Positions 12,782-28,300 of a stretch of DNA of 64,000 nucleotides are shown piece by piece (within the stretch, counting starts at the first letter, position 1; each line of letters begins with the position of its first letter). Below the pieces are notes generated by a model. That model saw only the letters and a program-made list of their open reading frames with translations, was not told where the DNA came from and did not search any database. The position numbers and the translations under genes were made by a program. The stretch is from an uncultured delta proteobacterium (GTDB lineage: Bacteria > Desulfobacterota > RBG-13-43-22), in NCBI GenBank assembly GCA_963790475.1, contig CAWBOS010000012.1, positions 1,504,001 through 1,568,000 of the forward strand, written 5' to 3'.

Positions 12782-14260
12782 ATGATAATCATGAACTTCA
12801 AACCGATCATACTCTGGACCGATGCTCTGATTGCCGTTTTGCTTTTGGCCGGATTGGCTTACGGCTGGACGATATTGAGACACGAGCACCTGCTGGCCCC
12901 CTGGAAACGGGTAATCCGAAACACGAGCGGCCTGGTGTCCATGATCGTGCTGACCGTGTTTCTGGTAATCGGTTTGCTCGATACCCTGCATTTTCGCCCG
13001 GCCATGGAAACCCAAAAAAACGGCGAGAGGGCTTATGCGGTGGAGGTCTTAAGCCTTTTGGATCTGATGGTCGGTCCCTTAAGGCAGCATACCGAAAAAA
13101 CGTATTCCGCCCCTTTGGCCGCCCATCTTTTTTCCAAAGAAACCGTCGAGCTTCCCGACGGGCGGCAGGCGCGGATTTTCCCACGCCTGGTTTACGGTGG
13201 AGCCCATCTGAAAAATCCCGATCAGGATAAGGACGGTGATATAGCTAAACGCGGGATCTTCGGTTTAATCCTGGCCCTGGTGTTATGGGGCCTGGCAGCT
13301 AGTGTTTTGCTCGGGATCCTGGCCCGCCGCCGAAAAATCGGCCTGGCCTCATGCCTAAAGGGCGTATTCCGTGGTCAAGAGGAAATTCCCTGGAATGCCG
13401 CTTTATGGACCTTGCTGGGCCTTTTTCTGTTGGCTGTGCCCATTACCGTTCTCAGCCTCAAATATCACGTTTTCGGCACCGACAAGGTGGGACAGGACGT
13501 GCTTTATCTGGCCTTGAAGAGCATACGTACCGGCCTGGTCATCGGGACCCTGACCACAATGGTGATGCTGCCCTTTGCGGTTTTGCTCGGAATCATGGCC
13601 GGGTTTTTCCAGGGGTGGATTGACGATATCATCCAGTACGTCTACACCACCCTGAATTCTATTCCCGCCGTACTGCTGATTGCCGCGGCCGTTTTGATGA
13701 CCCAGGTTTACATGGATAGCCATCCCGAACTGTTCGAAACCGCCAGCGCCCGGGCTGACCTGCGCCTGTTGTTTTTGTGCCTTATTCTTGGCATCACCAG
13801 TTGGACCGGACTGTGCCGCCTGATGCGGGGGGAATCGTTAAAGATCCGGGAGATGGAATATATACAGGCGGCGCAGGCCTTCGGCGTTTCCGATTTCAAG
13901 ATCATTATTCGACATATCCTGCCCAACGTCATGCACATCGTGCTGATCGCCCTGGTCATGGATTTTTCAGGCCTGGTACTGGCCGAGGCCGTATTGTCCT
14001 ACGTGGGGGTCGGCGTGGATCCCTCGATGATCAGTTTCGGCACGATGATCAACAGTGCCCGTCTGGAAATGGCCAGGGAGCCGATGGTCTGGTGGTCCCT
14101 GTCCGCCGCCTTCGGCTTTATGTTCCTGCTGGTGTTGTGCGCCAATCTGTTTTCCGATGCGGTACGGGACGCCTTTGACCCGCGGGTCCAAACCCGGGCG
14201 GTACGGCTGCAGCTCTTTCGGAAACGTCCGCCGGCCGTGGCGAAAGGGAAGCCTTCATGA
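12782..14260 (+). CDS. Peptide ABC transporter permease (DppC/OppC-like)
   Basis: HVFGTDKVGQD, EYIQAAQAFG, RHILPNV, AVRDAFDPR. Confidence 0.92.
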   Translation: MIIMNFKPIILWTDALIAVLLLAGLAYGWTILRHEHLLAPWKRVIRNTSGLVSMIVLTVFLVIGLLDTLHFRPAMETQKNGERAYAVEVLSLLDLMVGPLRQHTEKTYSAPLAAHLFSKETVELPDGRQARIFPRLVYGGAHLKNPDQDKDGDIAKRGIFGLILALVLWGLAASVLLGILARRRKIGLASCLKGVFRGQEEIPWNAALWTLLGLFLLAVPITVLSLKYHVFGTDKVGQDVLYLALKSIRTGLVIGTLTTMVMLPFAVLLGIMAGFFQGWIDDIIQYVYTTLNSIPAVLLIAAAVLMTQVYMDSHPELFETASARADLRLLFLCLILGITSWTGLCRLMRGESLKIREMEYIQAAQAFGVSDFKIIIRHILPNVMHIVLIALVMDFSGLVLAEAVLSYVGVGVDPSMISFGTMINSARLEMAREPMVWWSLSAAFGFMFLLVLCANLFSDAVRDAFDPRVQTRAVRLQLFRKRPPAVAKGKPS

Positions 14261-16304
14261 GCACACCCTTACTGGAAATCGATCGTTTAATAACCCGGCT
14301 GATCACAGACAGCGGTGTGATTAGAGCTGTGGACGGCCTGTCTCTGTCCATTAATCACGGGGAGACCTTCGCCCTGCTGGGGGAATCGGGTTGCGGCAAG
14401 TCCATGACTGCCCTTTCCATTATGCGCCTTTTGCCGGAGGCAGGTCTTATCCTTGGCGGCAGCATTCGGCTGGAGGGCCGTGATCTATTAGCCATTTCGG
14501 AATTGGAAATGCGTAACGTTCGGGGCCGACATATCGGTATGGTTTTCCAGGAACCGATGCTGAGCTTGAATCCGGTCATGACCATCGGGAACCAGGTGGA
14601 GGAAATTCTCATTCAACACCTCAAACTGCCGGGTGAGGAGGCCAGGAAACGTGCTCTGGCCCTGCTGGAGGCGGTGGGTATTCCCGATGCGGCCCGACGC
14701 AGCGGCTATTATCCCTTCCAATTTTCCGGAGGCATGAAACAGCGGGTGATGATCGCCATGGCCTTGGCTTGTGAGCCGGCCCTTTTAATCGCCGATGAAC
14801 CCACCACGGCACTCGATGTCACTACGCAAGCCCAGGTCCTTGATCTGTTACGGCAAATCCAGAGTCAGAGCCGCATGTCGATACTGCTCATCACCCATGA
14901 TCTCGGAGTGGTTTCAGAAATGGCCCACCAGGTGGCGGTGATGTATGCCGGCGAGGTGGTGGAAACGGCTGACCGCCAGCGGTTCTTCACCCATCCGGCC
15001 CATCCTTATTCAAGAAAACTCTTTGAATCCCTGCCCATGCGAAATAAACGGGGCGAGCCCCTGGCCATGATCAAGGGCAGCGTGCCACCCCTTACCAGGG
15101 AATTTTCAGGCTGCCGTTTTGTCGAACGCTGCGATTTTAGCTGGGATCGTTGCCTTTCCCGGGTGCCCCAATGGAACCAATGGGAGCCGGGTCGCTTTGT
15201 GAGATGCCACCTTTATGAAAATCAGGCGAGAGGCGAGAGGCAAGAGGACAAGGGCAAAGAGCAAAGGGCATGGAGCATGGGGGAGGGGGAGGGCGGCAAA
15301 GAAAGAGAGACGGGATTTGCGGCGCAAGATGCGAAAACACCTACACCCCTTCTGAAAGTGGAAGATTTGAAAGTTCATTTTCCAATCCGCAAAGGCCTCC
15401 TGAAGCGTACGGTGGGGTCCATCAAGGCCGTGGACGGCGTATCCCTTTCGGTTCCCATCGGAAGGACCCTGGCCCTGGTGGGGGAATCCGGCTGCGGCAA
15501 GACCACTCTGGGCAAGGGTATTCTCCGCCTCATCCCCCTGACCGGCGGTTCGGTTTGGTTTCAGGGAAAAGATCTTTCGTCTCTGTCCTCCGCGGAACTA
15601 AGGCCGCTGCGCCGGGAGTTTCAGATCATCTTCCAGGACCCCTACGCCTCGCTCAATCCCCGCCTGCGGATTGCGGAAATCATCGAAGAGGGTATGGCGG
15701 CCCTCGGCATCGGGACCGGCTCCGGCGATCGGATGATTCGTATCGACCGCTTGCTGGAGGAGGTCGGTTGTCGGCGTCGATCAAATTTCGCTATCCTCAT
15801 GAGTTCTCGGGAGGGCAACGTCAGCGAATCGCCATCGCCCGCGTCCTGTCCGTGAATCCTAAACTCATCATTTGCGATGAGCCGACCAGCGCGCTGGATA
15901 TTTCGGTACAAGCCCAGATCCTGAATCTGCTCAAAGAACTGCAGGACAGGCACGGTCTGGCCTATCTATTCATCACTCATAATATTTCCGTGGTCGAGTT
16001 TCTGGCCCACGAGGTGGCGGTGATGTACCTGGGGCGCATTGTCGAGCGGGGAACAGTAGAAGAGGTCTTGGACCATCCGAAACATCCCTATACCCAGGCG
16101 CTCCTTTCGGCCGTACCGTCGATCGATCCTAAAACCAAACGGGAGGTGATTCGTCTGCAGGGGGATCTGCCTTCCCCGGCTGATCCGCCACCCGGCTGCC
16201 ACTTCCATCCCCGCTGCCCTGAGGTCATGCCGAAATGCAGAGTGATCTACCCGGGTCAAAGCCGTTTCAGTGACACCCATTCCACGCACTGCCATCTGTA
16301 TTAG
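14257..16304 (+). pseudogene. Fused double-ATPase peptide ABC transporter (DppD/F-like), split by a 1-nt frameshift near 15768
   Basis: Two Walker A motifs ([16 protein letters not shown]). The frame breaks at EEVG and resumes as [19 protein letters not shown] in another frame; could be a sequencing error. Confidence 0.85.
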
Positions 16305-16337
16305 GATTATGGAGAGTTAAGGGGGATTGATATTATT

Positions 16338-16470
16338 GATGAACTCGTAAAAAGTTGTCACCCCGGTGAAAACCGGGGTCCAGAGGTTTTTAACTATTTA
16401 AAATTCCTGGATTCCGACTTTCGTCGGAATGACGAAAACAGGCTTCCGGTGGCTTTTTGCGAATCCGTCA
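16338..16470. repeat. Palindromic MITE/REP-like element, copy 3
   Basis: Terminal IRs gatgaactcgtaaaaagt / gctttttgcgaatccgtc around two GC-rich hairpins. Confidence 0.8.
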
Positions 16471-16658
16471 ATATTACCCAAGTGCAATTATTAAATTGCC
16501 TTTTTGCCACAGGAAAAACAGTCAAGAACAACAGACAAAACCTGATAAGCCTGCTATCGCTACATAAAGATTAAAAAGTTGCTTTTTAGTCGGATCAATA
16601 TAAAATTAAAGCTAAAAAGGGTGTTGAATGAAACGATGAATAGGAGACCGAAAAAAAA

Positions 16659-17420
16659 ATGTTCAAGAAGAGTATTTGGTTTTGGATACCGATTATCTGT
16701 TTATTCTTATTGTTGTTTTCCCGGCCAAGTGGGGCTATCGGCCTGGAGGCGGCCATCGGCCTCTCGTATCAGGATTTTCAGGGAGGTGTCGCCTATAAAG
16801 GAGATTCCCTCGATTTAAACAATGATTTGAGATTTAGTCGTGCTACCCAATTCTTTGGCCGGCTTAAAATTGATACACCCCTCGTTATCCCCAGTTTTTA
16901 CCTGATGGCCACGCCCATGAGCTTTGATGGAACGGCGACCGACAACCTCTCCTTTACCTTCGGGGATCAAACATTCAATGCCGGCATCCCTTTTTCATCG
17001 ACGTTAAGACTTGATCATTATGATTTGGCTTTGTATTACGGATTGCCTTTTGTAAAACAGGCTACGCTGGGGCGGATTAATATTGAGGCAGGATTGAATA
17101 TACGACTCTTTGATCTGAAAACAGAGATAACCCAGATGGGCAAATCGGAATCCGAGAGTTTTAATCTGCTTGTGCCAATGGCTTATCTTGGGCTCCAAAT
17201 CAAACCAACGAGTTTCCTTTCCCTGGAAGGAGAATTTCGAGGGGTTGCCTACAATAGCGATCATTACTATGATCTGATCGGCCGGGTCAAATACTATTTT
17301 GTCAAGTTGGCCTATGTCAGTGCCGGATACCGCCATGAAGAAATTTCCATGGACCAAAGTGATATAAAATTGAATGTCCGGTTTAGCGGACCTCAGGTAG
17401 AAGTAGGATTTCAATTCTGA
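16659..17420 (+). CDS. Outer-membrane beta-barrel protein (TIGR04219-like)
   Basis: Signal peptide, alternating amphipathic strands, LDHYDLALYY, C-terminal GFQF beta-signal. Confidence 0.8.
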   Translation: MFKKSIWFWIPIICLFLLLFSRPSGAIGLEAAIGLSYQDFQGGVAYKGDSLDLNNDLRFSRATQFFGRLKIDTPLVIPSFYLMATPMSFDGTATDNLSFTFGDQTFNAGIPFSSTLRLDHYDLALYYGLPFVKQATLGRINIEAGLNIRLFDLKTEITQMGKSESESFNLLVPMAYLGLQIKPTSFLSLEGEFRGVAYNSDHYYDLIGRVKYYFVKLAYVSAGYRHEEISMDQSDIKLNVRFSGPQVEVGFQF

Positions 17421-17462
17421 AAAACTACCTTTTCCCATAGGCGCCGTCCCTATTTTAATAAT

Positions 17463-17491
17463 TTGTCAAGATAATGTTTATCATTTATAAT
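17463..17491 (+). promoter_or_regulatory. sigma70 promoter, copy 1 of 3
   Basis: TTGTCA-17 bp-TATAAT. Confidence 0.65.
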
Positions 17492-17656
17492 GGGTTAAGT
17501 AAAATCCGGAGAGGTTAAATAATCAGGCGTCCTTCTATCAAAGACCAAAGATTCCTTTTTCCCTTCCTAAAGGGTTCCTTTGGGGAGAAAAGTTATAAAA
17601 ACATCTTAAAGTAACTGGTTAGCGAGGAGGAAATATGGGAGTATGGAGGTAAGTAA

Positions 17657-17857
17657 ATGACAAGAATTGAAGAAATTGAAAATACGGTTGCCTCGTTGCC
17701 GGTAGAAGAATACCGGAAATTTCGAGAATGGTTCCTGGAACGTGACTGGGCGCAATGGGATAGACAGATTCAAGCCGACTCGGAGTCAGGGAAATTGGAC
17801 TTCTTCGTGAAAGAGGCCATGGAAGAGAAGAACCGTGGTAAGTTGAGAGATTTGTGA
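17657..17857 (+). CDS. Putative type II antitoxin
   Basis: 66 aa, WDRQIQADSESGKLD; overlaps the toxin start (GTGA). Confidence 0.75.
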   Translation: MTRIEEIENTVASLPVEEYRKFREWFLERDWAQWDRQIQADSESGKLDFFVKEAMEEKNRGKLRDL

Positions 17858-18105
17858 TCCATCGCACAACCCGCCGTTTTTGGGACTGCTATCGGTCGTT
17901 ATCATCACAGACGAGAGAATTAGCTGACAAGAGCTTTACTCTTCTGCGCGAAGACCCTCGGCATCCCTCACTTCATTTCAAGAAGGTGGGGAAGGTCTGG
18001 TCTGCCAGAGTAGGTGCTGGCCATCGAGCTTTGGCTGTGCTCGACGGTCAGGACTATATCTGGGTGTGGATCGGGACACACGACGAGTATGAACGATTGA
18101 TATAA
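17854..18105 (+). CDS. RelE/ParE-superfamily toxin
   Basis: [12 protein letters not shown]...WSARV...HRALA...WIGTHDEY. Confidence 0.8.
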
Positions 18106-18151
18106 ATGCCAAACTGTAAATCCTACTAGAAATGGGGACATCCCCATCATT

Positions 18152-18351
18152 ATTATTCATCACACACAATATTTCCAGCTTCAGGGGGACCTGCCGTCCC
18201 CGGCCGACCCGCCCCCTGGCTGTCACTTCCATCCCCGATGCCCCGAGGTCATGCCGAAATGCCGGACGATTTACCCGGCCCAAAGCCGTTTCACCGACAC
18301 CCATTCCCTGCACTGCCATCTGTATGATGGTTTGGAGGGGTGATTGATATT
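18152..18351 (+). pseudogene. Diverged, internally deleted copy of the 3' end of the ABC ATPase gene
   Basis: Matches 15967-15989 joined to about 16155-16335 (LFITHNIS / [27 protein letters not shown]), with many substitutions. Confidence 0.85.
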
Positions 18352-18397
18352 AAACATAGCGATATAAATTATTACCTTTAAATCCAATGCTCCCTTC

Positions 18398-18450
18398 CGT
18401 CATGCCGGACTCGATCCGGCATCCAGAGGATTCTAACCACTGGATTCTGG
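18398..18450. repeat. Partial MITE/REP-like element, copy 4
   Basis: cgtcatgccggactcgatccggcatccag...ctggattctggc. Confidence 0.65.
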
Positions 18451-18454
18451 CTAG

Positions 18455-18623
18455 AAATTAATTTGTTATGAGAATATTTATAGTTTATAATAGGTTATCT
18501 AGATTTTGAAAGGGTTCTCGTGCTATTGGATGTCCAACAATAGCCAAAGATCTTTGTTTTCATCCCCGAAGGGGTACCTTGAGGAGGGGAGTTGTACAGA
18601 AACAATAAAATAACTTGTTCTTC
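18455..18623 (+). promoter_or_regulatory. Promoter (TTGTTA-17-TATAAT), leader and attI-like site
   Basis: Aligns with 19894-20063 up to aataaYttGTT, after which the sequences are unrelated. Confidence 0.65.
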
Positions 18624-18645
18624 CATTGAAAATAAAGAGGAGGAC

Positions 18646-18834
18646 ATGATGCAAATTAACGACAAAAAAACGAACAAGAGTTCCCTTAGATTTCCATACC
18701 CACATGGCAAGCCCGTTGAGTGCCCACATTGCGGCGAGAAGTTCGAACTTAAACGTCTTTCTGAAGCAACTGGTTATTTTGAATGTTTAAATCCGAATTG
18801 TAGAAAGACCTTTCATGTAAAGAAGGACCATTAA
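18646..18834 (+). CDS. Small zinc-ribbon protein (cassette-like ORF)
   Basis: RBS GAGGAGG; CPHC...CLNPNC; AT-rich; followed by an attC-like site. Confidence 0.65.
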   Translation: MMQINDKKTNKSSLRFPYPHGKPVECPHCGEKFELKRLSEATGYFECLNPNCRKTFHVKKDH

Positions 18835-18868
18835 TACTATATGCCTCGTTTCTTAATTTCTTATTAAA

Positions 18869-18928
18869 CTTGAACAAGCCAAAATCAGCCGACGCAAAAA
18901 GCCGCGCGGCTGATTTGCAGCGTTAGTC
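18869..18928 (+). other. Integron attC-like site
   Basis: (CTT)GAAC...AAATCAGCCG-acgcaaaaagccgcg-CGGCTGATTT...GTTAGTC, a 60-bp imperfect palindrome with R''/R' cores. Confidence 0.75.
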
Positions 18929-18957
18929 GCTGTTTCATTCCTTACCAAGGAGACGAT

Positions 18958-19239
18958 ATGAATGTTTTATTAGATGATTTAGAAACAGAATGGAAGAAAG
19001 TTCCAGAATACAAAGATGTGGAAGCTGAATATTGGGTTCCTGGGCAGAACCAAATAGAGAAGTGCCCAAATGGATGTGAACTGGTAATTTATGAAGGTAA
19101 TCCTGTAAAATGGGACCGGGTATCGGGCCGTGATGCTTATCGCCAGACAAGGATATGTAGGAAACATGGTTTTGCACGAATTTATGTTATAACCGGCCCT
19201 GCCGCATTGGCTACAAAGTGGAATCCACAGAATTCATAA
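18958..19239 (+). CDS. Hypothetical cassette-like protein with Cys/His pairs
   Basis: RBS AAGGAG about 20 bp after the attC; CPNGC and CRKH. Confidence 0.65.
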   Translation: MNVLLDDLETEWKKVPEYKDVEAEYWVPGQNQIEKCPNGCELVIYEGNPVKWDRVSGRDAYRQTRICRKHGFARIYVITGPAALATKWNPQNS

Positions 19240-19270
19240 AAAGCCATGAGGATTGTCATTAATTATATAA

Positions 19271-19295
19271 GAAACTTTAGAATAACTTGTTCGGC
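19271..19295 (+). other. attI-like site, copy 2
   Basis: gaaactttagaataacttGTTCGGC; nearly identical to 20040-20063. Confidence 0.55.
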
Positions 19296-19316
19296 TTACT
19301 AAGCGGGGTACGAGGT

Positions 19317-19697
19317 ATGATCTTTGAGACGTACTATTGGAGATTGGAATTGGGACGTCTTTCGCGCGTACTGCATCGTCACATTACACAGCGCCGGTGG
19401 CGTACATCATCTGATGCATCGGTCGAAAAATGTATAATGCTAGGCTTCTATTCAGTTCGCAAACTGCTTGACGCATTTCAGCCGCCTCCGAATATGGCGT
19501 TTCAATTAACTGTCACAACGTCCCCCTTTTTTGGCGATCATTACTATGATCTGATCGGTCGGGTCAAATACAATTTTATTAAGTTGGCCTTCGTTAGTGC
19601 CGGATACCGCCATGAAGAAATTTCCATAGACCAAAGTGATATAAAACTGAATGTCAGGTTTAGCGGACCTCAGGTAGAAGTCGGATTCCAATTCTGA
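19317..19697 (+). pseudogene. Chimeric ORF: truncated cassette gene fused in frame to a copy of the beta-barrel C-terminus
   Basis: MIFETYYW...GFYSVRKLL up to about 19520; 19534-19700 matches 17257-17423 with about 12 mismatches (counted by eye). Confidence 0.8.
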
Positions 19698-19760
19698 AAA
19701 CCAGGGGGAGAGTTATCCCCACGAAAAGTGAATTAATAGACGCTGTTGTCCCTATTTTCA

Positions 19761-19890
19761 GATCCAAAAACCAAACGGGAGGTGATCCATCTTCGGGGGG
19801 ATATGCAGTCCCCGGCCGACCCCCCGGCCGGCTGCCATTTTTATCTCCGCCGCCCTGAAGTCATGCCGAATTGCAAAGTGATCTATCCGG
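19761..19890 (+). pseudogene. Second diverged copy of the ABC ATPase 3' region
   Basis: Matches about 16125-16254 (DPKTKREVI...GCHF...PEVMP). Confidence 0.85.
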
Positions 19891-19893
19891 TTG

Positions 19894-20063
19894 GAAAATA
19901 ATTTGTTTAGACAATGTTTATCATTTATAATAGGTTTCCTGGAATTTGAAAGGGTTGTGGTGCCTTTGGACGTCCATCAACAGCCAATAGTCTTTGTTAG
20001 CATCCTCGAAGGGATACATTGAGTTGGGGAGTTAGAAAAAAACTTTAGAATAATTTGTTAGGG
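19894..20063 (+). promoter_or_regulatory. Promoter (TTGTTT-17-TATAAT), leader and attI-like site ending GTTAGGG
   Basis: Paralogue of 18455-18623. Confidence 0.65.
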
Positions 20064-20072
20064 ATTGACTTC

Positions 20073-20735
20073 ATGGAAAAGCAAGCGTGGGACATTTCCT
20101 GCACAAAGGAAGAATTTGAAAAGATAAAATCAGACGAATGTTTCATTGGATTGCTTACTTTGGGTAGGGTCGTGAACGCTTTGCGTTTTTGCCAAAAGCC
20201 TGCAAGAGACGCTAAAGGTGGCTCTGACCCTTCAAGTGCTCGCTCTATGATTAACTCTTTTTTATTCGCAAGCTCAGTTTTATACGAAGGGTTTCTGCTG
20301 GTTGAAAAATTGGTCAGGCAATATAAAGATCGTGATTCATTCAAAGATGGTTTTGGAGCTTTGTTAAGAGACGACTTGGTTACATCTTTGAGAACATCAG
20401 TTCTAAAAAGAGCAAGGAATAAATTTATTTTTCATTTCGATAGGGATGTGTCGAGAGAAGCACTACAATATTTTGATATGGCAACTATTAAATTTGCATC
20501 AGGGGTTGGGAAAGCCACTGGTGAAATGTATTTTGGTTTGGCTGATGAACTTGCGATGAATTACTTGTTACAGCCAAAAGAAAATGAATCTAATGAGTCT
20601 TTGATGCAACGATACGCAAAAATCGTGAAGGACACTACCTCTATTATGGGACAATTTACCAAATCCACAGAAATTCTTATGGCAGATGTGTTGAAAGATA
20701 TGGGGTTTGTTGTCAAGAACGCTGCGCGTCCCTGA
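20073..20735 (+). CDS. HEPN-like all-helical protein (cassette-like ORF)
   Basis: RNKFIFH fits the Rx4-6H motif; ATG is about 10 bp after the attI-like core; AT-rich. Confidence 0.6.
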   Translation: MEKQAWDISCTKEEFEKIKSDECFIGLLTLGRVVNALRFCQKPARDAKGGSDPSSARSMINSFLFASSVLYEGFLLVEKLVRQYKDRDSFKDGFGALLRDDLVTSLRTSVLKRARNKFIFHFDRDVSREALQYFDMATIKFASGVGKATGEMYFGLADELAMNYLLQPKENESNESLMQRYAKIVKDTTSIMGQFTKSTEILMADVLKDMGFVVKNAARP

Positions 20736-20861
20736 CATCTCTGTAGATGATCATCTGTGGCTGCTCAGCGTTTGCACCTCAATACCATCGGATGCAGCAG
20801 ACAATCCCGCCGGCAAGCAAGCTTGCCTCCGGTCTTGCTCCCGTTCCCCAGTCATTAGGCT
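20730..20861 (+). other. Degenerate attC-like site(s)
   Basis: CCCTGAC overlaps the stop codon and is nearly complementary to the cassette start GTTAGGG; then cggatgcagcagacaa...ggcaagcaagcttgcc...ATTAGGC. Confidence 0.45.
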
Positions 20862-20880
20862 TAACGAGAGGAGAACAAAT

Positions 20881-21675
20881 ATGGGACTTCTCGACAATCT
20901 AAGAAGAAACATGCCAGGGGGGCCAAGAAATATTGCTAAGCACTTATTGAAATACTACTTGGCTGATATAACAAGGTTTCCCTATTTAAATTCAAAAGAA
21001 ATATTCAAAAAGATGTTGCAGGATCGTTATGCAGTTATAAAGAAGATGAGTGCTGACGATATAATGAAAATTGTTTCAAAGACTGATACTTTGGTTGAAC
21101 TTACATTAGAAGTTATTGCATATGAGCATCCTGCCGCAATGAATTCGCACTATCAAAAAGAAACCTGTGACGATATCTTTGACTTCTTTAAAGAGAACGT
21201 ACCTCAGGAGTTTGAAAGATTTATCAATAAGGTTAATGCTACAGAAAATCAGGACAATTATGAATTCGGGATTCGGAAATCTGCCCCCATACCTATAAGG
21301 CCACCAATATCCAAAGAAGAGGCATTTGTCGAATGGATGTTACGTTATGATGAAGATACCCTGCTATTTCGACAAATGATTTCAGATGAGAACTTAGATC
21401 ATGTTGTAACGAGCACTACAAAATTGATAATCCGAGAAGTGAACGATAATCCAAGTGGCGAAATGCTAATGGATAGATTAGGTACTATTAGGGAGTTTTG
21501 TCAAACATCTCTAAAACCAATCATTGAAAAAAGAAGGGGCATAGAATTTTGCCCCGAAGAAATACAAATCGTATTTCTCGCCTGCCTAACAAAGATGTCA
21601 ATATTGCCGTATTTCGTAAAGTACAAATATAATGTACCAGTTCCAGAAGGGTTTCTCCCGCTTAAAGAATTATAA
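20881..21675 (+). CDS. Hypothetical cassette-like protein
   Basis: RBS GAGGAG, ATG at 20881, AT-rich, 264 aa. Confidence 0.7.
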   Translation: MGLLDNLRRNMPGGPRNIAKHLLKYYLADITRFPYLNSKEIFKKMLQDRYAVIKKMSADDIMKIVSKTDTLVELTLEVIAYEHPAAMNSHYQKETCDDIFDFFKENVPQEFERFINKVNATENQDNYEFGIRKSAPIPIRPPISKEEAFVEWMLRYDEDTLLFRQMISDENLDHVVTSTTKLIIREVNDNPSGEMLMDRLGTIREFCQTSLKPIIEKRRGIEFCPEEIQIVFLACLTKMSILPYFVKYKYNVPVPEGFLPLKEL

Positions 21676-21854
21676 CTGATAACGTGCGGCATGCAACCGG
21701 AGGGGTCTCGACCTACTGCTGTGGAAGCCGGGGTCAAATCTTTATCTTTACATTTAGAAATATTTATTGTGTTGGATAAGCCATGATAAGAACCTTGAGA
21801 ATCCAATATCCTAATACGTATTATCTTGTGACCTGCTGCGAAAAAAGGGACGTT

Positions 21855-22077
21855 GATAAAATATCACTTTACAGATAGTGAATGTTGGGATCAGGTTTCG
21901 GTTCGAATCAACTGGGGTCTGATGCTGCAAAAAATCAAATGGAAAGACTTCAATGAAACACGGATGCTGATTGGATCGGCTATTCTTCTCTTCTTTTTGA
22001 CAGGCCTCTTTCTGCAGGCGCCGGCGTATGCCGAATCCTGTGAAAAGGTCGTTCATGCGGTCAATATGCGGCTCTCG
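21855..22077 (+). pseudogene. Diverged copy of the upstream region and 5' end of the barnase-like RNase gene
   Basis: Aligns with 22817-22832 plus 24244-24448; has a 1-nt deletion after ATG AAA and is truncated after NMRLS. Confidence 0.85.
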
Positions 22078-22282
22078 GCCGCGGAACATAGGGCCAGGTC
22101 TTGAAATATAAGTTTTATGGTTAGGATTTTCCTACCGAAGTATTTTCTTAAAAAGATTGTGGTTTGTAGGAGAATTCTTTATACTAAAGCTAAAACGGTG
22201 ATAGTAGCGATAGGGGTAAAGGAAAGTGATTTTTCACGACCCCATTTCCTTGAATGACTTTGAGATATTGGAGGAACGATTT

Positions 22283-22504
22283 ATGAAGAAGCAAATTACA
22301 GCGCTTATTGAACGTGAAGGGGATGGTTTTGTATCGCTTTGCCCGGAACTCGATATCGCCAGTCAGGGCGATACAATCGAAGAAGCCCGTGAAAACCTAC
22401 GTGAAGCTCTTGAGCTTTTCTTTGAGACCGCTTCCCCCCAGGAGATTCAATCACGCTTTCATGAGGAAGTGTATGTAACGAGGCTGGAGGTTGCAGTTGC
22501 CTAA
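22283..22504 (+). CDS. hicB: HicB-family antitoxin (short form)
   Basis: ALIEREGDGFVSLCPELDIASQGDTIEEARENLREALELF. Confidence 0.9.
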   Translation: MKKQITALIEREGDGFVSLCPELDIASQGDTIEEARENLREALELFFETASPQEIQSRFHEEVYVTRLEVAVA

Positions 22505-22718
22505 ACTCCGTGTTCTATCTGGGAATCAAGTTTGTGAGATCCTATTACGCCATGGATTCCTTGAGGTGCGGCGCCATGGCAGCCATATCGTAATGCAGAA
22601 GCGATTGCCGGATACAACGATTACCGTACCTGTCCCAAATCATACAGATCTGCGGATTGGTACACTTCAATCCATCATCCGCCAGTCTGGTATATCTAGA
22701 ACCGAATTTGAATCCTGA
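22497..22718 (+). CDS. hicA: HicA-family mRNA interferase toxin
   Basis: HGFLEVRRHGSHIVM...VPVPNH...GTLQSIIRQSG. Confidence 0.9.
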   Translation: MPKLRVLSGNQVCEILLRHGFLEVRRHGSHIVMQKRLPDTTITVPVPNHTDLRIGTLQSIIRQSGISRTEFES

Positions 22719-22724
22719 GCGATC

Positions 22725-22788
22725 GCCCAACAAGTCGTTCCCCCGAATCGCCTAAATAACAGTCTTCCCGGTGAACTCACCGTTGATC
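22725..22788 (+). other. Integron attC-like site after hicBA
   Basis: R'' GCCCAAC 7 bp after the stop, gttcccccg...cggtgaac arms, R' GTTGATC. Confidence 0.65.
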
Positions 22789-22832
22789 AAGGAAAAGCCA
22801 AGGAGATGGTAGGTGAAAAATAACACGTTAGA

Positions 22833-24239
22833 GAACCTTTTGCAAAACTTATAAAAACTGCATGATGAAATATATCAGCAGGCGGTTATCCCAGTCGATT
22901 TAGGAATTTTGGGTCTTTCTTAACGACGATAGTCAGATTTGAGACTTTGGTAACAATTTTCAGGCATAGTTCTCCTCCTGACCTGAACTTTTCACCCCGT
23001 TCTTTGAAAATTTACTCAGGAAGCCAACTTTATCAACTGATCCGCAAAGAGCGCCAGGACGCCAAACATGAGATGGAGATTGACTTTCAAGGCTCCTCGG
23101 ACCATGACATTCTTGGCACCGAACTCTTCTTTTAACCGGCTATTGAACCGTTCTGATGCTGTCCTTCCATTAAATCTTCTGGCCTCGTGGGGAGCCATAG
23201 GGATCACATCCTTACCGCGGAAGTTCTTGTCGATAATGGGCACATGTCCCAGAGCTCTGCTGATTGCATAGATAGATCCAGCGTCATAAGCGGCATCCAT
23301 CAAATCATAAAGATAATCCACCTTGGAACTAGTCATCTTCATTAACGGTATAGCGACCTGGCTGTCATGAAGCGATGCTGCGGTCAAGACGACACTCACC
23401 GGCAATCCGCAATCATTAACATCGGCATGGAGTTTATACCCGACCCAGGTCTCTTTGTACCCTTTGGAGTTCTTCTTGGTCCCTACGTCGCAGTAAACCG
23501 GCAATTCTTTTAAGGCCTCTTCAACTGATTGCTCTCGTTGCCTGGTCAAGCGTTTGTCTTCCTTGGAATCACGGAGTTCTCCCTTGACTGGACGTCCTCT
23601 CTTCTTCGGCGCAGGCTTTTCTTTTACAGGCTTCTTAGTCGGCTTTTCCCGACCTTCTATGGCCGTTGCGTCTCGGGATATATGACCAACCAGTTCCGGC
23701 TTTAAACAACGTTCCACCAGGGCTTCGTGAACTTTTTCGCCAAGCCCCCCTTCGGCAAACTCCGCAAAGGCCCTGGAAAAAGTGGCCTCAGAGGGAATGT
23801 CGGATACCTTTTCGAACCCGCAGATGCGTCTTACATTAGACGTCGTTTTCAAATGTTCAATGGTTGATCTGGTGAAGGAATGGTTATAGACCGTCTTGGC
23901 CACAAAAGCCCGCGCTATCGCTTGGCGCTCAAGGATCTTCCTCCCCATCCACTGATTTAAAGAACTCCGGGGAACATATCTTTCAACCTCAACCAGTTCC
24001 AATATCGTCACCAGCCGTTCCTCTTTTTCAGTCAAAGGCTGTTCCCAACATTCTTCTAAATCGGAAAATAAACCTTGTTGCAATCTACCCCTTAACCATG
24101 ATACTTTTTTCCAGAGCTTCATCGGTGTCTCCTGTGTTTTTTTGTGTTCTTTCTAAACATCATCTTAACACAGAACCACCGCTGAGGCTCACTCTTTATG
24201 CTTGTCTATTCCCTAAAAATAGACTTTTGCAAGAGGCTC
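22833..24239 (-). mobile_element. Complete IS (IS1182/IS5-like DDE element), 1407 bp
   Basis: Imperfect IRs GAACCTTTTGCAAAACTT / GAGCCTCTTGCAAAAGTC (14/18 match); 4-bp direct repeat TAGA on both sides. Confidence 0.88.
23016..24122 (-). CDS. DDE transposase
   Basis: PSEATFSRAF, SRDATAI, GYKLH, HDSQ, MDAAYD, RTASERFNSRLK. Confidence 0.92.
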   Translation of the reverse strand: MKLWKKVSWLRGRLQQGLFSDLEECWEQPLTEKEERLVTILELVEVERYVPRSSLNQWMGRKILERQAIARAFVAKTVYNHSFTRSTIEHLKTTSNVRRICGFEKVSDIPSEATFSRAFAEFAEGGLGEKVHEALVERCLKPELVGHISRDATAIEGREKPTKKPVKEKPAPKKRGRPVKGELRDSKEDKRLTRQREQSVEEALKELPVYCDVGTKKNSKGYKETWVGYKLHADVNDCGLPVSVVLTAASLHDSQVAIPLMKMTSSKVDYLYDLMDAAYDAGSIYAISRALGHVPIIDKNFRGKDVIPMAPHEARRFNGRTASERFNSRLKEEFGAKNVMVRGALKVNLHLMFGVLALFADQLIKLAS

Positions 24240-24322
24240 TAGAGAAAGTGGATATTGGAATCAGGTTTCGTTTCGAAGCACCCGGACCTGATACTGCAAA
24301 AAAATCAAATAGAAAGAATTCA

Positions 24323-24793
24323 ATGAAACAACGGATACTAATCAGATCGGCTATCCTCTTCCTCTTTTTGATAGGCCTCTTCCTGCAGACGCAGGCCTAT
24401 GCCGAATCCTGTGAAAAGGTCGTCCATGCAGTCAATATGCGGCTCTCGACCGGAATCGACGAGCGGGAATTGATCGAAATAATCCACAATCTGAACAGGA
24501 CGAGCAACAAAAGGCTTCCTTCTAAGTTCGTGAACAAGCGGGAGGCCTGGTCAGAGGGATGGAAACCTGGAAGGGACTTGTGGTCAGTCAGATCACTTAG
24601 AGGCTCGAGCATGGGGGGCGACTATTTCAAAAACCTGGAGGGTCGGTTGCCTGACAATAAATGGCGCGAGGCGGATCTCGACTATAAGGGCGGACACCGG
24701 GGCGGCAAACGCCTTATCTTTTCAGGCGATGGGGAGCGATTTGTGACCGTAGACCACTACAAGACCTTTACGGAGGTGCCGGCATGCCGGTGA
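24323..24793 (+). CDS. Secreted barnase/RNase Sa-family ribonuclease
   Basis: Signal peptide (AYA-E), GGDYFKNLEGRLP, WREADLDY, RGGKRLIFS, TVDHYKTF. Confidence 0.9.
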   Translation: MKQRILIRSAILFLFLIGLFLQTQAYAESCEKVVHAVNMRLSTGIDERELIEIIHNLNRTSNKRLPSKFVNKREAWSEGWKPGRDLWSVRSLRGSSMGGDYFKNLEGRLPDNKWREADLDYKGGHRGGKRLIFSGDGERFVTVDHYKTFTEVPACR

Positions 24794-25062
24794 AACGATT
24801 CCAATTAAATGGGAGCACAATACGTTCTCTCGATGATCTCTATGATCGGATGTCATCCCTCATCGATCTGCCGGAGCACTTCGGGCGCAATCTCGATGCG
24901 CTCTGGGACGTCCTTTCCACTGATGTCGAAGGTCCTTTCGAGATCGTCTGGAAGAATGCGGATAATTCAAAGAAGTTTATGGGCAAGGATTTTGATCGGA
25001 CCGTGAAGATGCTGCGGGAGCTGGAAAAAGAACGGGATGACTTCAAATTGATGATCGATTAA
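24784..25062 (+). CDS. Barstar-family ribonuclease inhibitor
   Basis: LPEHFGRNLDALWDVL signature. Confidence 0.93.
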   Translation: MPVKRFQLNGSTIRSLDDLYDRMSSLIDLPEHFGRNLDALWDVLSTDVEGPFEIVWKNADNSKKFMGKDFDRTVKMLRELEKERDDFKLMID

Positions 25063-25124
25063 TAAGATAGCCCACAACACATTAAACCTATGGGGGCCAT
25101 GCAGGAAAAAAGAAAAGGTCAAAT

Positions 25125-25335
25125 ACTTTTTTGCCACAGACCCACACGGGCAAAAGCCGGACAAAAGCCTATCTCTCACAGAGCTCTCAGAGACTCAGAG
25201 CAACCTAATTTATTGATTGCCGGTGAGGGGCCGGCAATCAATAACATTCACTACCCTGGGGGTAATTTTTTGGGCGGAGACCAGAGTTGGGGCATTTGCG
25301 GCCTCATGCCGGCCCTCACTCAATTCCTGCGGCAG
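25125..25335. repeat. Palindromic intergenic element with 9-mer repeats
   Basis: cacagagctctcagagactcagag followed by the perfect hairpin ttattgattgccgg-tgaggg-ccggcaatcaataa. Confidence 0.6.
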
Positions 25336-25386
25336 AACATGGTCCACATACTCCCTTTCTACCCCTGAATCTTTAAATAGCCCCTG

Positions 25387-28300
25387 TTATCTGGTCTTAA
25401 ATAAAGACAATTGGGACGTGATTGCTTTTTCCTTGTCCACCTTTTTCTGCAGGCGGGCCGCCTCCCGAAGGTTACCCCGCTTTTTCCAGATTCCCAGGGC
25501 TTCTTCCAAACGATTCATCCGCTCATAGACCCGGGCCTCCCCCGCTTCGTCTCCGATAGCCTTAAAGCAGCGGAGGGCCTCTTCGTTATGACCGCCATCA
25601 CGGTAGGTCCGACCTGCTTCCGAATAAAATTTCGTTTCTTCAAGAATATGGCCAGCCAATTGTAAATTACGGTGCCGCCGGGCCAGGTGAACGGCCTCTT
25701 CGGTTTTCCGTTCCCCCAAGAGAAATTCCACGGCCTGCCGGTAATGCCTCGGGCTTTCGCCGAAGAGCCTGTAATTCCAGCCGGTCATCTCAATGCGGTC
25801 CAGACTGGTTTCAAAAGCGTCTTTGTCCTGATAGAACTGATAGCAAGCCAGGAGAGCCGGGTCTTTTTCCCGGGCGGCCAGCCGTTTCAATTCGGCGATG
25901 AATTTTTTCAAATTCTGGGAAATGGATTTGGCAAAGAGCGTTCCTTCCCGGACCGCTTCAAAAATTCCGTTGTAATTCCGGGTTTGGAGCAGAAAGTTCA
26001 AAACGGGACCAGGCAAACTGGACCCCCAGAAGGGGAGGGAGGAGATAAACTGTTCCACACCGGGCCGCCATTCCTCTTTATTTCCCTTTTCCAGGAGCCG
26101 GGTCAGAAGCTCGGCAATAAATACCTGGGCCTCCGTCCGAAGCCGATAGTGGTTATCTGTTTCCAAATATTTATGCAGAAGGGCCTGCAAAAAGGGAAGC
26201 GTGATTTTCGGGCCGGCGGCTTCCTTCACATATCTCCCGGCCTCCTCCAGGCGGTTGCCCCTCAGAAAATAATCCAAGGCCTCCTCGTCCCGGCCGGTTT
26301 TCCGGTAAGCCTCCCGAACCAGGTCCGGGGCATTGACGGCCTTGAATCGGACCAGTGCCCGGTCCGGGGAGCCTTCCTTTAAAAACTGTTCCCCCTCCTG
26401 GAGGAGTTTCAGTTCCTTTCGCGTCTCCTGCCGGCCTTCACCGAGATGGAAGGAAAGAAATTCGGCGGCCTGCTCCCATTTATCCGGAAGCTGACTTTGC
26501 TCGATTTCCAAAGCGGCCTGATAATAATCCCCCAGGTTATAAAAACAATCGGCAGCGCTTTCGTGATTTCCCAGGGCTTGGTATTGGGGTGCGGCCAAGT
26601 TATAAAAGCGTTTTTTGAAGAAGAAAGCGGCCGATTCCTCATATTGCCCCAGTGCAAACGAACGAACGGCCGCTTTCAGCAGGTTGTTTTTGAGCACTGC
26701 CTGGCTTTTTTCTTTTTCCATGAGGGCGGCCTGCTCCTTGCCGGTTCGGGCGAACCGGGTGAAGGCTTCCATGGCCGCGGCCAGGTCCCCGTTCTTTTCA
26801 TGCAGAAGGGCGGTCTGGTAATCGTCCCCCCCTTTGACGTAGCACTCCAGCAGTCGGGCCTGGTTTTTCAACCTTTTGTACATGGCGGCGGCCTCGGCCC
26901 AGTTGCCGGCCTGGTAAAATAGGTCCGCGGCCCGATCGAGCTTTTTCAACTTTTTAAAGAGGACCGCGGCCTGCCGGTACAATCTCCCGGCCGCGAAGGC
27001 CTCGGCCGCCTCCGGGTACTTCTTGTTGGCGGCCAGGTATTCGCCCAGGCGTTGGTGATTCCCGGCCTTCCGCCAATTCTCCAGGGCCTTGGTGATCTCC
27101 TTCCTTCTGAGCCATTCCTCTGCAGCCCGGTCAAACTCGCCCTGCTGCTCGTAAAGGAAGATCCGGCATAGGGCTGCGCGCTCGTGGTCTTTCAATTTTT
27201 CCCATATGTCCATGGCCAGCTCCCATGAACCGGAACGCTCATAACAGGCGCCGGCCTGGGGCCAATAACTGTGCTTCTCAAACAGCGGGGCGGCTTCCCG
27301 GAATTGTTTGCGCTGCTCCCAAACAAAGGCCTGGGCGATTTCCGCCCGATCGAGGCTGCCGGCGTTTTTGTAACATTCCAGGGCCGCCGGGTAATATTCA
27401 CGCTCCAGGAAATAATCTCCCTGATCGGCCCATTCCTCCGGTGAGGAGACCCGGTGCCAGAGCCGGGGCAGCGCTTCGGAATCGGATGTTGAAAACAAGA
27501 ATTCGACGAGCTCGGTCAAGTTCCAGATCTCCGCGCCCGGATCGTAAATGATGAGGGTGTTCCGGGCCCGGGTAATGGCCACGTACAGCAGGTTGATCTC
27601 GTGGCGCAGGTGCGGTTGGCCGCTGCGCTCAAGTTCCCTTCCGTTGAGGATACGCCGCCAGAGCGGGGCCGATTTTGGATCGGCGGAAAATTTCCAGACC
27701 AGAACCGTATCGAATTCCAGCCCCTTGGCCTCCTGGATGGTGAAAATCAATTCCGTTCCCAGGACCTGTTTCAGCCGGGTCTGCTCTTCCCGGTCCCGGA
27801 CCAGAATGACCTGCCCGGCGGCCCGCAGCCGCAGTTGGGAGAGGATTTTTCCCTCTTCCATGTCGGTCAGCAGAAAGGGGGGCTTCCCGTTGAATTTCCA
27901 TTCCTCCCTGATTTCCGAGCCGGCCAGCCCGATCAAACGCTGTTTGAGGTCCAGCAAGGCGTTGGCCAGCTTGACCACGTTGCCCACACAGCGAAAGTTG
28001 ATCCGCAGGGAGTGTACCCGGGGCACCTGGATCCCGCGTTCGAAAAATTTGTTCCGCACCTCCTCCCAGCGAAAGCCGCTGGGATTGATGATCTGCTTGG
28101 TATCGCCAGCGAGGACCACGTTCTCCGGAGAACCGGCCAGCCGGAAGATCAGGGACAGTTGCACGTCGGCGAAGTCCTGGACTTCGTCACAGACTACCAG
28201 ATTATAAGAAGTCTGGGGGTCGGCCCCCCGGCCCAGCCGGTCCAGGACCCGGCGGCAGAGGTCGATCTCATCCCACAGCCCCTGTTCCTCCAGTTTCCCC

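Follow-up and report, generated by a model that had tools for sequence, protein, structure and literature searches.

Three copies of a putative promoter-attI platform at an integrase-less locus of an uncultured delta proteobacterium

A stretch of about 5.4 kb in the genome of an uncultured delta proteobacterium resembles the receiving end of an integron several times over, and the question is what such a locus can be when no integron integrase gene (intI) is seen beside it. The stretch lies at 17.4-22.8 kb of a 64,000-nt window (the whole piece of DNA analysed here, positions 1,504,001 to 1,568,000 of contig CAWBOS010000012.1 in assembly GCA_963790475.1) and within it are three copies and one 29-nt fragment of a module of about 170 nt, in which a sigma70 promoter close to the consensus leads into a 128-129 nt leader ending in ...GGAGTTATACAGAAAC-TTTAGAATAAC-TT-GTT (Table 1). 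We consider it probable that the interval is a decayed chromosomal integron without an integrase, in which three platform copies and the 29-nt fragment, a platform being the cassette promoter (Pc) together with the integron attachment site (attI), were stacked by ordinary recombination and are now fixed expression units. On this reading the stretch would be the fossil of a site of gene capture and an example of such a site being present in several copies. What carries this reading is that the module is homologous to the region adjoining intI in relatives, that its conservation stops at the terminal GTT and that a canonical cassette follows the second module.

The repeated module and its counterpart beside intI

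The extent of the module was drawn from an alignment of 16 genome-wide promoter copies with 28 sites carrying the 3' motif. The conserved part opens about 10 nt ahead of the -35 box and closes with ...GTTATACAGAAAC-TTTAGAATAACTTGTT, past whose GTT the sequences diverge, and the start of an open reading frame (ORF) usually follows 10-30 nt beyond this terminal triplet. In the window the 40-nt promoter blocks at 17457-17496, 18457-18496 and 19897-19936 show 80-100% mutual identity, with the hexamers TTGTCA, TTGTTA and TTGTTT in modules 1, 2 and 3 each separated by 17 nt from TATAAT, and modules 2 and 3 are similar across 174 nt (78%) and thus beyond the promoter block. The hexamers match the consensus at 11 of 12 positions in module 1 (17463-17491) and at 10 of 12 in module 2 (18463-18491), and a promoter scan of 16200-25400 ranked two of the three module promoters first and second, the one with TTGTTT not being listed. 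On this consensus match a Pc reading into the cassettes is predicted; among the RNA sequencing runs none was listed as containing the stretch. An earlier note on this DNA had proposed an attI-like site ending in GTT and had put the crossover triplet just after the -10 box; the site itself is borne out but the triplet chosen lies about 125 nt too early, as the conserved stretch runs on for that distance and stops at the GTT listed for each module in Table 1. Of 48 copies from the genus, 40 have 124-132 nt between the -10 box and this GTT.

At its 3' end the module carries the core GGAGTTATACAGAAAC-TnTAGAAT-nAC-TT-GTT, with the putative crossover between the G and the TT. Two inverted 7-bp boxes, GAATAAC and GTTRRRY (GAATAAC-TT-GTTRRRY), lie in this core beside direct repeats of GTTAT type, with GAGTTATAC about 24 nt upstream of the simple site and AGGTTAY at the leader start. 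The cores of modules 2 and 3 are near the consensus of intI-linked sites and that of module 1 is degenerate (AAAGTAACTGGTT).

The identity of the module is suggested by its position in relatives. True integron integrases, scoring 354-386 bits against the TIGR02249 model (cut-off 265 bits), occur in 6 of 21 family genomes, and the promoter module lies divergent at the intI start in five of eight intI loci of relatives, namely L097, L098, L099, L100 and the degraded L104. In L097 an ORF comes past the TTGTT, followed by typical cassette attachment sites (attC) and then by more cassettes. A wider set of 80 loci was retrieved with the 524-aa IntI of L100, which scores 402.9 bits to TIGR02249 over residues 213-523; they come from named genomes, mostly Thermodesulfobacteriota or 'delta proteobacterium' metagenome-assembled genomes with other phyla also represented. 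Of these loci 46 have at least 300 nt of DNA upstream of intI, and in 31 of them a search with up to 5 mismatches found the 20-nt 3' core in divergent orientation no further than 450 nt from the gene on that side; the reversed-sequence control found it in none of the 46. Thirty-two intI-linked sites share a conserved core of about 35 nt, GGAGNTATACAGAAAC-TNTAGAAT-NACTTGTT, and unlike this 3' core the promoter does not follow intI across phyla. Because of the position beside intI in relatives and of the conservation that ends at GTT we read the module as the Pc and candidate attI of this lineage, as the earlier note had supposed for the promoter and its downstream site; for the modules of the window adjacency to intI is given by homology with these relatives. 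The integrases of the clade (L100:6403-7977, L097, L098 and L099) measure 470-524 aa, of which about 210 aa form an N-terminal extension ahead of the TIGR02249 region; most of the 80 related loci have a match to this extension.

The candidate site also has the expected architecture. According to the accessible part of Elsaied et al. (2011, PMC3146285) an attI holds a simple site of two inverted 7-bp boxes with a crossover GTT and direct repeats upstream. Like attI1 and the environmental attI described there, the module has inverse 7-bp boxes, a GTT crossover and upstream direct repeats of GTTAT/GTTAC type, stands between intI and the first cassette and is accompanied by a Pc near consensus. 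Unlike attI1 as given in the same text, its sequence is unrelated save for the core triplets and site plus leader span about 129 nt versus about 65 bp. It further differs in that the AAC and GTT of its simple site are 2 nt apart and in that the cognate IntI bears the N-terminal extension. By this comparison the candidate site has the architecture of an attI.

Could the module instead be a lineage-specific regulon element, a promoter with a structured 5' untranslated region in which an operator palindrome is combined with a leader of about 129 nt that folds as RNA, copied before accessory genes to control their expression, its adjacency to intI being secondary? The constant leader length would fit such an element, as would the fold, in which 89% of cells pair in the predicted structure compared with 32-51% with slid partners, G.U pairs occur in the closing helix and four of six pairs of the inner hairpin show changes on both sides. 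The palindrome GATAAT-A-TTTATC between the -35 and -10 boxes (17469-17485 and in all modules) and the presence of one module before a housekeeping-type glycogen operon speak in the same direction. Against this, the leader matches no Rfam family, the palindrome is not found elsewhere in the genome beyond chance (GATAA-N3-TTATC at 15 sites, 8 of them within modules, with control palindromes at 2-11), the most conserved part of the module is the 3' core that tracks intI across phyla as the promoter does not, and attC sites cluster downstream of the cores. We therefore hold a regulon element of this kind to be very improbable, although a role of the transcript besides the attI role is possible for the leader and the two are not mutually exclusive. 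The Rfam scan, which covered 16000-25500, gave one chance-level match, WsnRNA46, at 26.8 bits versus a threshold of 65.3, inside a repeat element of the repetitive extragenic palindromic (REP) kind. The spacer palindrome, which we take to be Fur-box-like, was rejected as a genome-wide operator of a LexA or Fur type regulon as it shows no enrichment outside the modules. The module was likewise rejected as a canonical attC because its ends pair in the reverse polarity (5' GTTA...TAAC 3') and it receives no score from the attC models.

A cassette without an integrase

A strict pattern scan of 16300-25400 for RYYYAAC...GTTRRRY (at least 6/7 complementary) returned nothing, yet the same type of scan recovers only 1 of about 4-5 real sites in the array of a relative and an arm-energy version recovers 2. 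Because such scans are too insensitive to count as evidence we built covariance models for attC. The first, R1, was made from 8 sites in arrays beside intI in relatives and found 11 further sites in 83 intI loci or sources of other genomes, all on the minus strand, which is the cassette side in the case of those situated upstream of intI; the second, R2, was built from the resulting 19 sites, and neither model holds any sequence of the genome under study. The strongest match of R2 in the window, at 18868-18928, is also its best match in the whole 6.34-Mb genome (E 1.1e-4 genome-wide), and R1 places its own best window match at 18871-18928 (22.7 bits, E 0.006). The site is about 77% similar to an attC of the related genome G014, with a compensatory change from G-C to C-G, and begins 34 nt past the stop of the ORF encoding a 62-aa zinc-ribbon protein. 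As this small ORF is bounded by the attI GTT of module 2 and by an attC, positions 18618-18922 form a canonical cassette at the module 2 attI.

Hairpins resembling attC had been claimed for the cargo ORFs in general, of which one strong site and one weak site stand. The weak one lies directly after the HicA gene at 22724-22788, where R1 gives 16.5 bits (E 0.18) and R2 17.9 bits (E 0.06 in the window but about 6 genome-wide), and neither model finds an attC for any other cargo ORF of the interval. Across the genome, 9 of the 19 R2 matches fall at most 6 kb downstream of an attI-like core on the same strand where 0.25 would be expected, which ties the two kinds of site together. An attC-model match of 32.6 bits was also observed at C10:1651130-1651185 (contig C10), about 200 nt upstream of a gene for an Xer-like recombinase of 314 aa, of which contig C11 holds a second, identical copy.

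No intI was found in the window, as already remarked in the earlier note, nor anywhere in the assembly, which comprises 6.34 Mb in 20 contigs and is rated 100% complete with 9.68% contamination. The best TIGR02249 score in it is 105 bits against the 265-bit cut-off, and a tblastn search with the IntI of a relative returned only Xer-like genes of 29% identity and two fragments. One of these, at C10:587094-587363, is an N-terminal piece of 109 aa that corresponds to IntI residues 6-114 at 45% identity and adjoins one of the modules; the other is a C-terminal piece of 70 aa on contig C15. Within the window itself a 67-aa ORF at 1225-1428, 16 kb from the integron-like interval, is a C-terminal fragment of a tyrosine recombinase that scores 30 bits against the integron-integrase model and is not IntI-specific.

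We suggest that cassettes were once inserted between the G and the TT of the core by an integron integrase through attI x attC recombination, and that the integrase was later lost from the genome. With its loss the arrays would have been frozen. The modules would now act only as promoters for what stands behind them, that is the ParE-like pair, the zinc-ribbon cassette and unknown ORFs, and the HicBA pair is probably expressed on its own.

The earlier note saw the platforms as serviced in trans, and the same view can be extended to an active multi-platform integron in which capture and shuffling continue by means of an integrase elsewhere in the cell or on a mobile element. The cores of modules 2 and 3 and the one intact attC would allow for this, genus relatives carry intact intI, and a contig of sequencing run X2 matches 540 nt of the ORF at 20073-20735 with 98.5% identity when backbone contigs of that run are at about 90-92%, which suggests recent exchange of cargo. 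Service in trans is nevertheless unsupported because the genome encodes no integron integrase; moreover most of the cargo has no recognisable attC and could not be excised, and the module 1 core is degenerate. An integron still active in this manner seems to us quite improbable.

Stacked copies at the locus and dispersed copies elsewhere

The three platforms stacked at one site are interleaved with pieces of the flanking genes. The 3' end of a fused double ABC ATPase gene, 16155-16308, recurs at 18179-18332 (84%) and again as the third copy in Table 1, which is cut within the coding region and joined directly to module 3; copy 2 is 85% identical to the resident gene and 84% to that of the genus relative G010. 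The 3' end of the gene for an outer-membrane beta-barrel protein (OMP), 17257-17423, recurs at 19534-19700 with 93% identity, and the stretch downstream of this OMP remnant matches the sequence that follows the OMP gene in G010, G011 and G012. The upstream region and 5' end of the barnase gene on the right flank, 24237-24452, recur in the copy at 21867 with 84-87% identity. Module 1 follows the OMP terminator and module 2 follows the ABC fragment and a REP-like repeat. All classes of repeat that the earlier note had put into its recurring unit are thus present, although the gene-end fragments are no feature of integrons and its short junction motif drops out of the unit altogether. This motif, GTCCCTATTTT, occurs at 17446-17456 and 19747-19757 and is formed by the 3' half of the OMP terminator hairpin together with its T-tail. 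The hairpin and T-run also follow the OMP gene of G011, a copy stands behind the OMP fragment at 19736-19757 and full palindromic versions occur elsewhere in the genome, and the motif was accordingly ruled out as a recombination site.

Identity to the resident genes is 75-93% for the fragment copies, and orthologues compared between species of the genus reach 78-94%. As the two ranges are about the same, the gene ends suggest ordinary recombination that drew on diverged copies of the locus. We infer that the platforms were stacked by homologous or illegitimate recombination and not by an integrase, with segments being added from diverged and probably foreign copies of the ABC-OMP-barnase region that would each have brought their own platform, cargo and piece of flanking gene. 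The site after the OMP gene is variable among relatives, with about 500 nt before a helicase gene in G012, 2.9 kb of other cargo in G011 and a contig in G010 that ends 770 nt past the OMP gene. No module was found in seven orthologous loci of relatives, and their cargo at this interval is different or absent, as the earlier note would have it.

A mosaic of this kind might also arise in assembly, if coexisting strain variants of one locus had been joined into one contig. The contamination rated at 9.68%, the resemblance of the fragments to alleles of related strains and the short public contigs, which do not bridge the junctions shown, are compatible with a chimera. The contig holding the locus is on the other hand 1.6 Mb long, the fragments are truncated and internally deleted pseudogene pieces rather than full alternative alleles, and the same order of flank fragment, module and cargo recurs at C10:142-143k, there with a 5' fragment of a gene of the metallo-beta-lactamase fold. 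In addition the OMP 3' end, module 1 and the antitoxin ORF are found together on one 651-nt contig of run X2 that is about 92% similar. Of the explanations weighed here we find a chimera the hardest to credit.

The earlier note described the organisation at one chromosomal site, but it is not confined to it and occurs genome-wide and across the genus. Pc-attI modules number about 16 in the genome and attI cores about 30. Among 301 sampled genomes of the phylum the 29-nt promoter motif, allowing up to 3 mismatches, is found in all nine other family genomes and outside the family in only three genomes, all of one other family, with none for the reversed pattern; the 24-nt 3' motif is found in 11 of 14 genus genomes (control 0). 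Genus genomes without intI hold up to 14 promoter motifs. Behind modules elsewhere in this genome lie a pair of genes of the cyclic oligonucleotide-based antiphage signalling system (CBASS; SAVED plus SMODS), Mrr, an nSTAND3 NTPase, BrnT/BrnA, a secreted-nuclease-like gene and others.

Several of these loci were looked at individually. At C12:1218496-1224594 Mrr and unknown ORFs with three attC-model matches stand behind an attI core, with a second core further on, before an AbiEii-like gene. No other integrase-less array in the genome is as clear, and one attC of this array shares 92% identity over 38 nt with the window attC. At C13:504536-510462 four attI-core motifs fall within 6 kb, each before small gene sets (Schlafen/AlbA_2, unknown ORFs, BrnT, Ddl), and as no attC-model match was found there this array is spaced by attI-like rather than attC sites. 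At C10:837253-840852 a module lies about 0.9 kb upstream of the genes for a SAVED-domain protein and an SMODS nucleotidyltransferase (CBASS-type) with a HigBA pair upstream. The attI core is multi-copy and dispersed in other Desulfobacterota genomes too, one of which, of 8.1 Mb, has 12 copies and only 2 integrases.

The dispersed copies bear on another account of the locus, in which the Pc-attI module, alone or with cassettes, is moved by an integrase as a cassette-like unit. Such a unit would have a second core-like site at its left edge (GTTGGAA or GTTAGGG, about 13 nt before the -35 box) and would insert at attI, attC or a secondary GTT, and the three copies of the window would be insertions that seed expression platforms, not imported flanks. 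Most solo modules do begin abruptly at one common point, about 8-14 nt ahead of the -35 box. The three modules of the window are homologous to intI-linked platforms only from about 8 nt before it, and 2-4 modules of this genome retain 50-200 nt of intI-proximal sequence with all others lacking such homology. Of 72 solo modules, 12 including module 3 have a GTT at a distance of 11-14 nt upstream of the -35 box, other offsets giving mostly 1-3, and intI-linked platforms carry (G/T)TTAGGGR at the matching place. Leaders of family A contain an inverse-core-like GTCCAAC complementary to GTTGGA, attI cores recur between cassettes in the C13 array, and in five other Desulfobacterota genomes, three of which are titled chromosome or complete, there are 2, 5, 12, 5 and 4 attI cores versus 2, 5, 2, 1 and 3 intI above the cut-off. 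Cassette insertion outside att sites driven by the integrase has moreover been reported, according to the accessible text of a preprint (10.1101/2022.09.11.507474).

Other findings speak against a unit moved by site-specific insertion. The left-edge GTT is present in only 17% of solo modules and is replaced by TTT and GCT in modules 1 and 2, the attC models do not score the module, and the flanking-gene fragments at modules 2 and 3 and at the C10:142-143k pair are not expected from such insertion. The 3' core, in accompanying intI across phyla, also fits a co-evolving attI better than a mobile cassette. A portable cassette-like platform thus appears unlikely to us. The broader proposition, that the platform is a multi-copy dispersible unit copied to new sites by the integrase or a process tied to it and expressing cassettes after the loss of intI, we likewise regard as unlikely. 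If it were true one genome would contain twelve or more independent sites of capture and expression, the solo attI-Pc platforms would be a new class of element beside complete integrons, In0 and clusters of attC without an integrase (CALIN), and integron activity would reshape genomes far from the integron.

Returning to the decayed integron stacked by ordinary recombination, several points weigh against it. The module is identified as attI from position and homology, and it was not seen beside intI in L101 and L102, L103 having almost no upstream DNA, so that it was not found in three of the eight loci of relatives; the IntI of these three belong to a second IntI clade. In the wider set 15 of 46 loci are without the core at the threshold used. 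There is only one strong attC and most of the 'cassettes' are therefore not demonstrable as such. Standard integron chemistry leaves the left part of attI beside intI and cannot copy that part, and for this reason about 16 platform copies with mostly the same sharp left edge are not explained by simple decay. The stacking mechanism is deduced from the divergence of the fragments, and a duplication decaying in situ would yield comparable values. The RNA-like features of the leader could point to a role of the transcript, and as the public contigs over the stretch are short a mis-assembly at the junctions would not show in them.

Known systems, cargo and neighbouring features

Integrons and their integrase-less relics are known, and it is within this kind that the locus belongs. 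CALIN are defined as clusters of at least two attC without an integrase, for which loss of intI, rearrangement and insertion at secondary sites are proposed as origins, and IntegronFinder searches attI only as exact patterns of classes 1-3, all according to the accessible part of Cury et al. (2016, PMC4889954); the accessible part of a review (PMC8618304) gives only the origins of CALIN. Like a CALIN so defined, the locus has integron-derived cassettes without intI, here with a genome-wide lack of it. Unlike one, it has a single strong attC, the weak one lying 3.8 kb away, and the repeated feature is the attI and Pc platform with three local copies and about 16 in the genome. With complete sedentary chromosomal integrons, and with those of relatives such as L097 where the region is homologous, it shares a Pc reading into a putative attI that ends in GTT, small promoterless ORFs, toxin-antitoxin cassettes and attC; it differs from them in the missing integrase, in attI/Pc copies that are tandem and dispersed instead of single, and in the pseudogene fragments of neighbouring genes between the units. 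Some islands carry displaced 3' ends of their target gene, e.g. the e14 element in icd, and there as here diverged partial 3'-end copies mark the borders of successive accessory segments. The present fragments are unlike such islands in having no integrase or att core common to them, and they derive from three flanking genes with different end points.

The earlier note did not recognise the organisation from described integrons, and a full-text literature search (subscription papers excluded) likewise gave no description of a multi-copy or integrase-less attI. The locus departs from the known systems in the repeated and dispersed platform of Pc and attI, in its threefold stack and in an attI core that can be defined for a large environmental IntI clade. 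As attI is known in detail for few integron classes and search tools ignore it elsewhere, the core of about 35 nt given above is now available for integrases of this clade, which occur in Desulfobacterota and in further phyla. A layer of integron-derived and promoter-equipped accessory loci would escape surveys based solely on intI and attC because attI and promoter occur many times per genome, also without an integrase; in this genome such loci include toxin-antitoxin pairs and the defence genes CBASS, Mrr and STAND NTPases. The question raised is how the integrase-proximal half of attI, never moved by the standard chemistry, becomes multi-copy.

With regard to the cargo, module 1 is followed by the ParE-like pair and module 2 by the zinc-ribbon cassette, a 93-aa ORF, a lone attI core and the OMP remnant, while module 3 precedes ORFs of 220 and 264 aa and the HicBA pair comes after the barnase 5'-region copy, 2.2 kb beyond module 3. 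Two pairs have the make-up of type II toxin-antitoxin systems, HicA with its HicB-like partner and the ParE-like ORF, below the Pfam cut-off, with the overlapping 66-aa ORF, the latter matching nothing in Pfam, NCBIfam or PADLOC. The ORFs at 18958-19239, 20073-20735 and 20881-21675 gave nothing usable in Pfam, NCBIfam, PADLOC or the protein atlas, and PADLOC found nothing in the cargo of the interval as a whole. The HEPN-like cargo suggested in the earlier note is a sub-threshold lead, the 220-aa ORF reaching a language-model score of only 0.85 with an AbiU2-like HEPN cluster of the atlas and giving no Pfam or PADLOC match.

On the left, the fused ABC ATPase gene from which the 3'-end fragments originate is read as two overlapping ORFs, 14257-15855 and 15270-16304, with a frameshift or sequencing indel near 15800. 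The OMP gene has orthologues in six genus genomes (56-83% identity) and its order after the ABC gene is conserved in relatives. On the right, an insertion sequence (IS) has 12 other copies in the genome at 99.4-100% identity and has thus been active recently; it was inserted upstream of the barnase gene and now divides the HicBA unit from the barnase promoter region. The right end given to the interval in the earlier note, 22830, is a true boundary only as the edge of this IS and is no feature of its own.

Table 1 Features of the locus, with positions in the 64,000-nt window
Feature	Position	Strand	Details
Fused double ABC ATPase (oligopeptide/dipeptide type), left flank	14257-16304	+	Pfam ABC_tran and oligo_HPY, two of each; ORF list
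REP-like or miniature inverted-repeat transposable element (MITE)-like repeat, about 130 nt	16330-16475	.	More than 100 BLAST matches genome-wide
Resident OMP gene	16659-17420	+	Weak Pfam OMP_b-brl match
OMP terminator hairpin tail	17437-17456	+	Includes GTCCCTATTTT; hairpin and T-run also in G011
Putative Pc-attI module 1	17451-17620	+	-35 17463-17468; -10 17486-17491; leader 17492-17620 (129 nt); crossover GTT 17618-17620
66-aa ORF, putative antitoxin	17657-17857	+	Overlaps ParE-like ORF by 4 nt
ParE-like toxin ORF, 83 aa	17854-18105	+	Pfam ParE_like, E 6.3e-5, 23.3 bits, just below the 24.4-bit cut-off
ABC ATPase 3'-end remnant, copy 2, internal deletion	18154-18352	+	82% over 181 nt
Second REP-like repeat	18360-18452	.	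Many partial matches across the genome
Putative Pc-attI module 2	18451-18619	+	-35 18463-18468; -10 18486-18491; leader 18492-18619 (128 nt); crossover GTT 18617-18619
Zinc-ribbon ORF, 62 aa	18646-18834	+	Sub-threshold Pfam zinc-ribbon matches; ORF of the cassette at about 18618-18922
Canonical attC	18868-18928	+	R2 37.9 bits, E 1.1e-6 in the window
93-aa ORF, second cassette-like unit	18958-19239	+	ORF list; no attC found
Isolated attI 3' core (...AAGAAACTTTAGAATAACTTGTT), without promoter or leader	19263-19291	+	Repeat family; exact 16-mer match
Truncated OMP remnant and terminator copy	19317-19758	+	NCBIfam TIGR04219, E 6.6e-13
ABC ATPase 3'-end remnant, copy 3	19761-19890	+	83% over 130 nt
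Putative Pc-attI module 3	19891-20059	+	-35 19903-19908 (TTGTTT); -10 19926-19931; leader 19932-20059 (128 nt); crossover GTT 20057-20059
220-aa ORF	20073-20735	+	Nearest atlas clusters are hypothetical proteins
264-aa ORF	20881-21675	+	No family match; no usable atlas match
Diverged copy of barnase upstream region and 5' end	21867-22081	+	84% over 217 nt
HicB-like antitoxin	22283-22504	+	Weak HicB/UPF0150 matches
HicA toxin	22491-22718	+	Pfam HicA_toxin, E 2.8e-16
Weak attC-like site directly after HicA	22724-22788	+	R'' GCCCAAC, R' GTTGATC
IS element (DDE transposase, 368 aa), 1407 nt	22833-24239	-	Pfam DDE_Tnp_1 and DUF772
Barnase-type ribonuclease, right flank	24323-24793	+	Pfam Ribonuclease, E 1.4e-10
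Barstar, right flank	24784-25062	+	Pfam Barstar, E 1.5e-22

The REP/MITE-like repeat at 16330-16475 lies outside the integron units and is unrelated to the finding.

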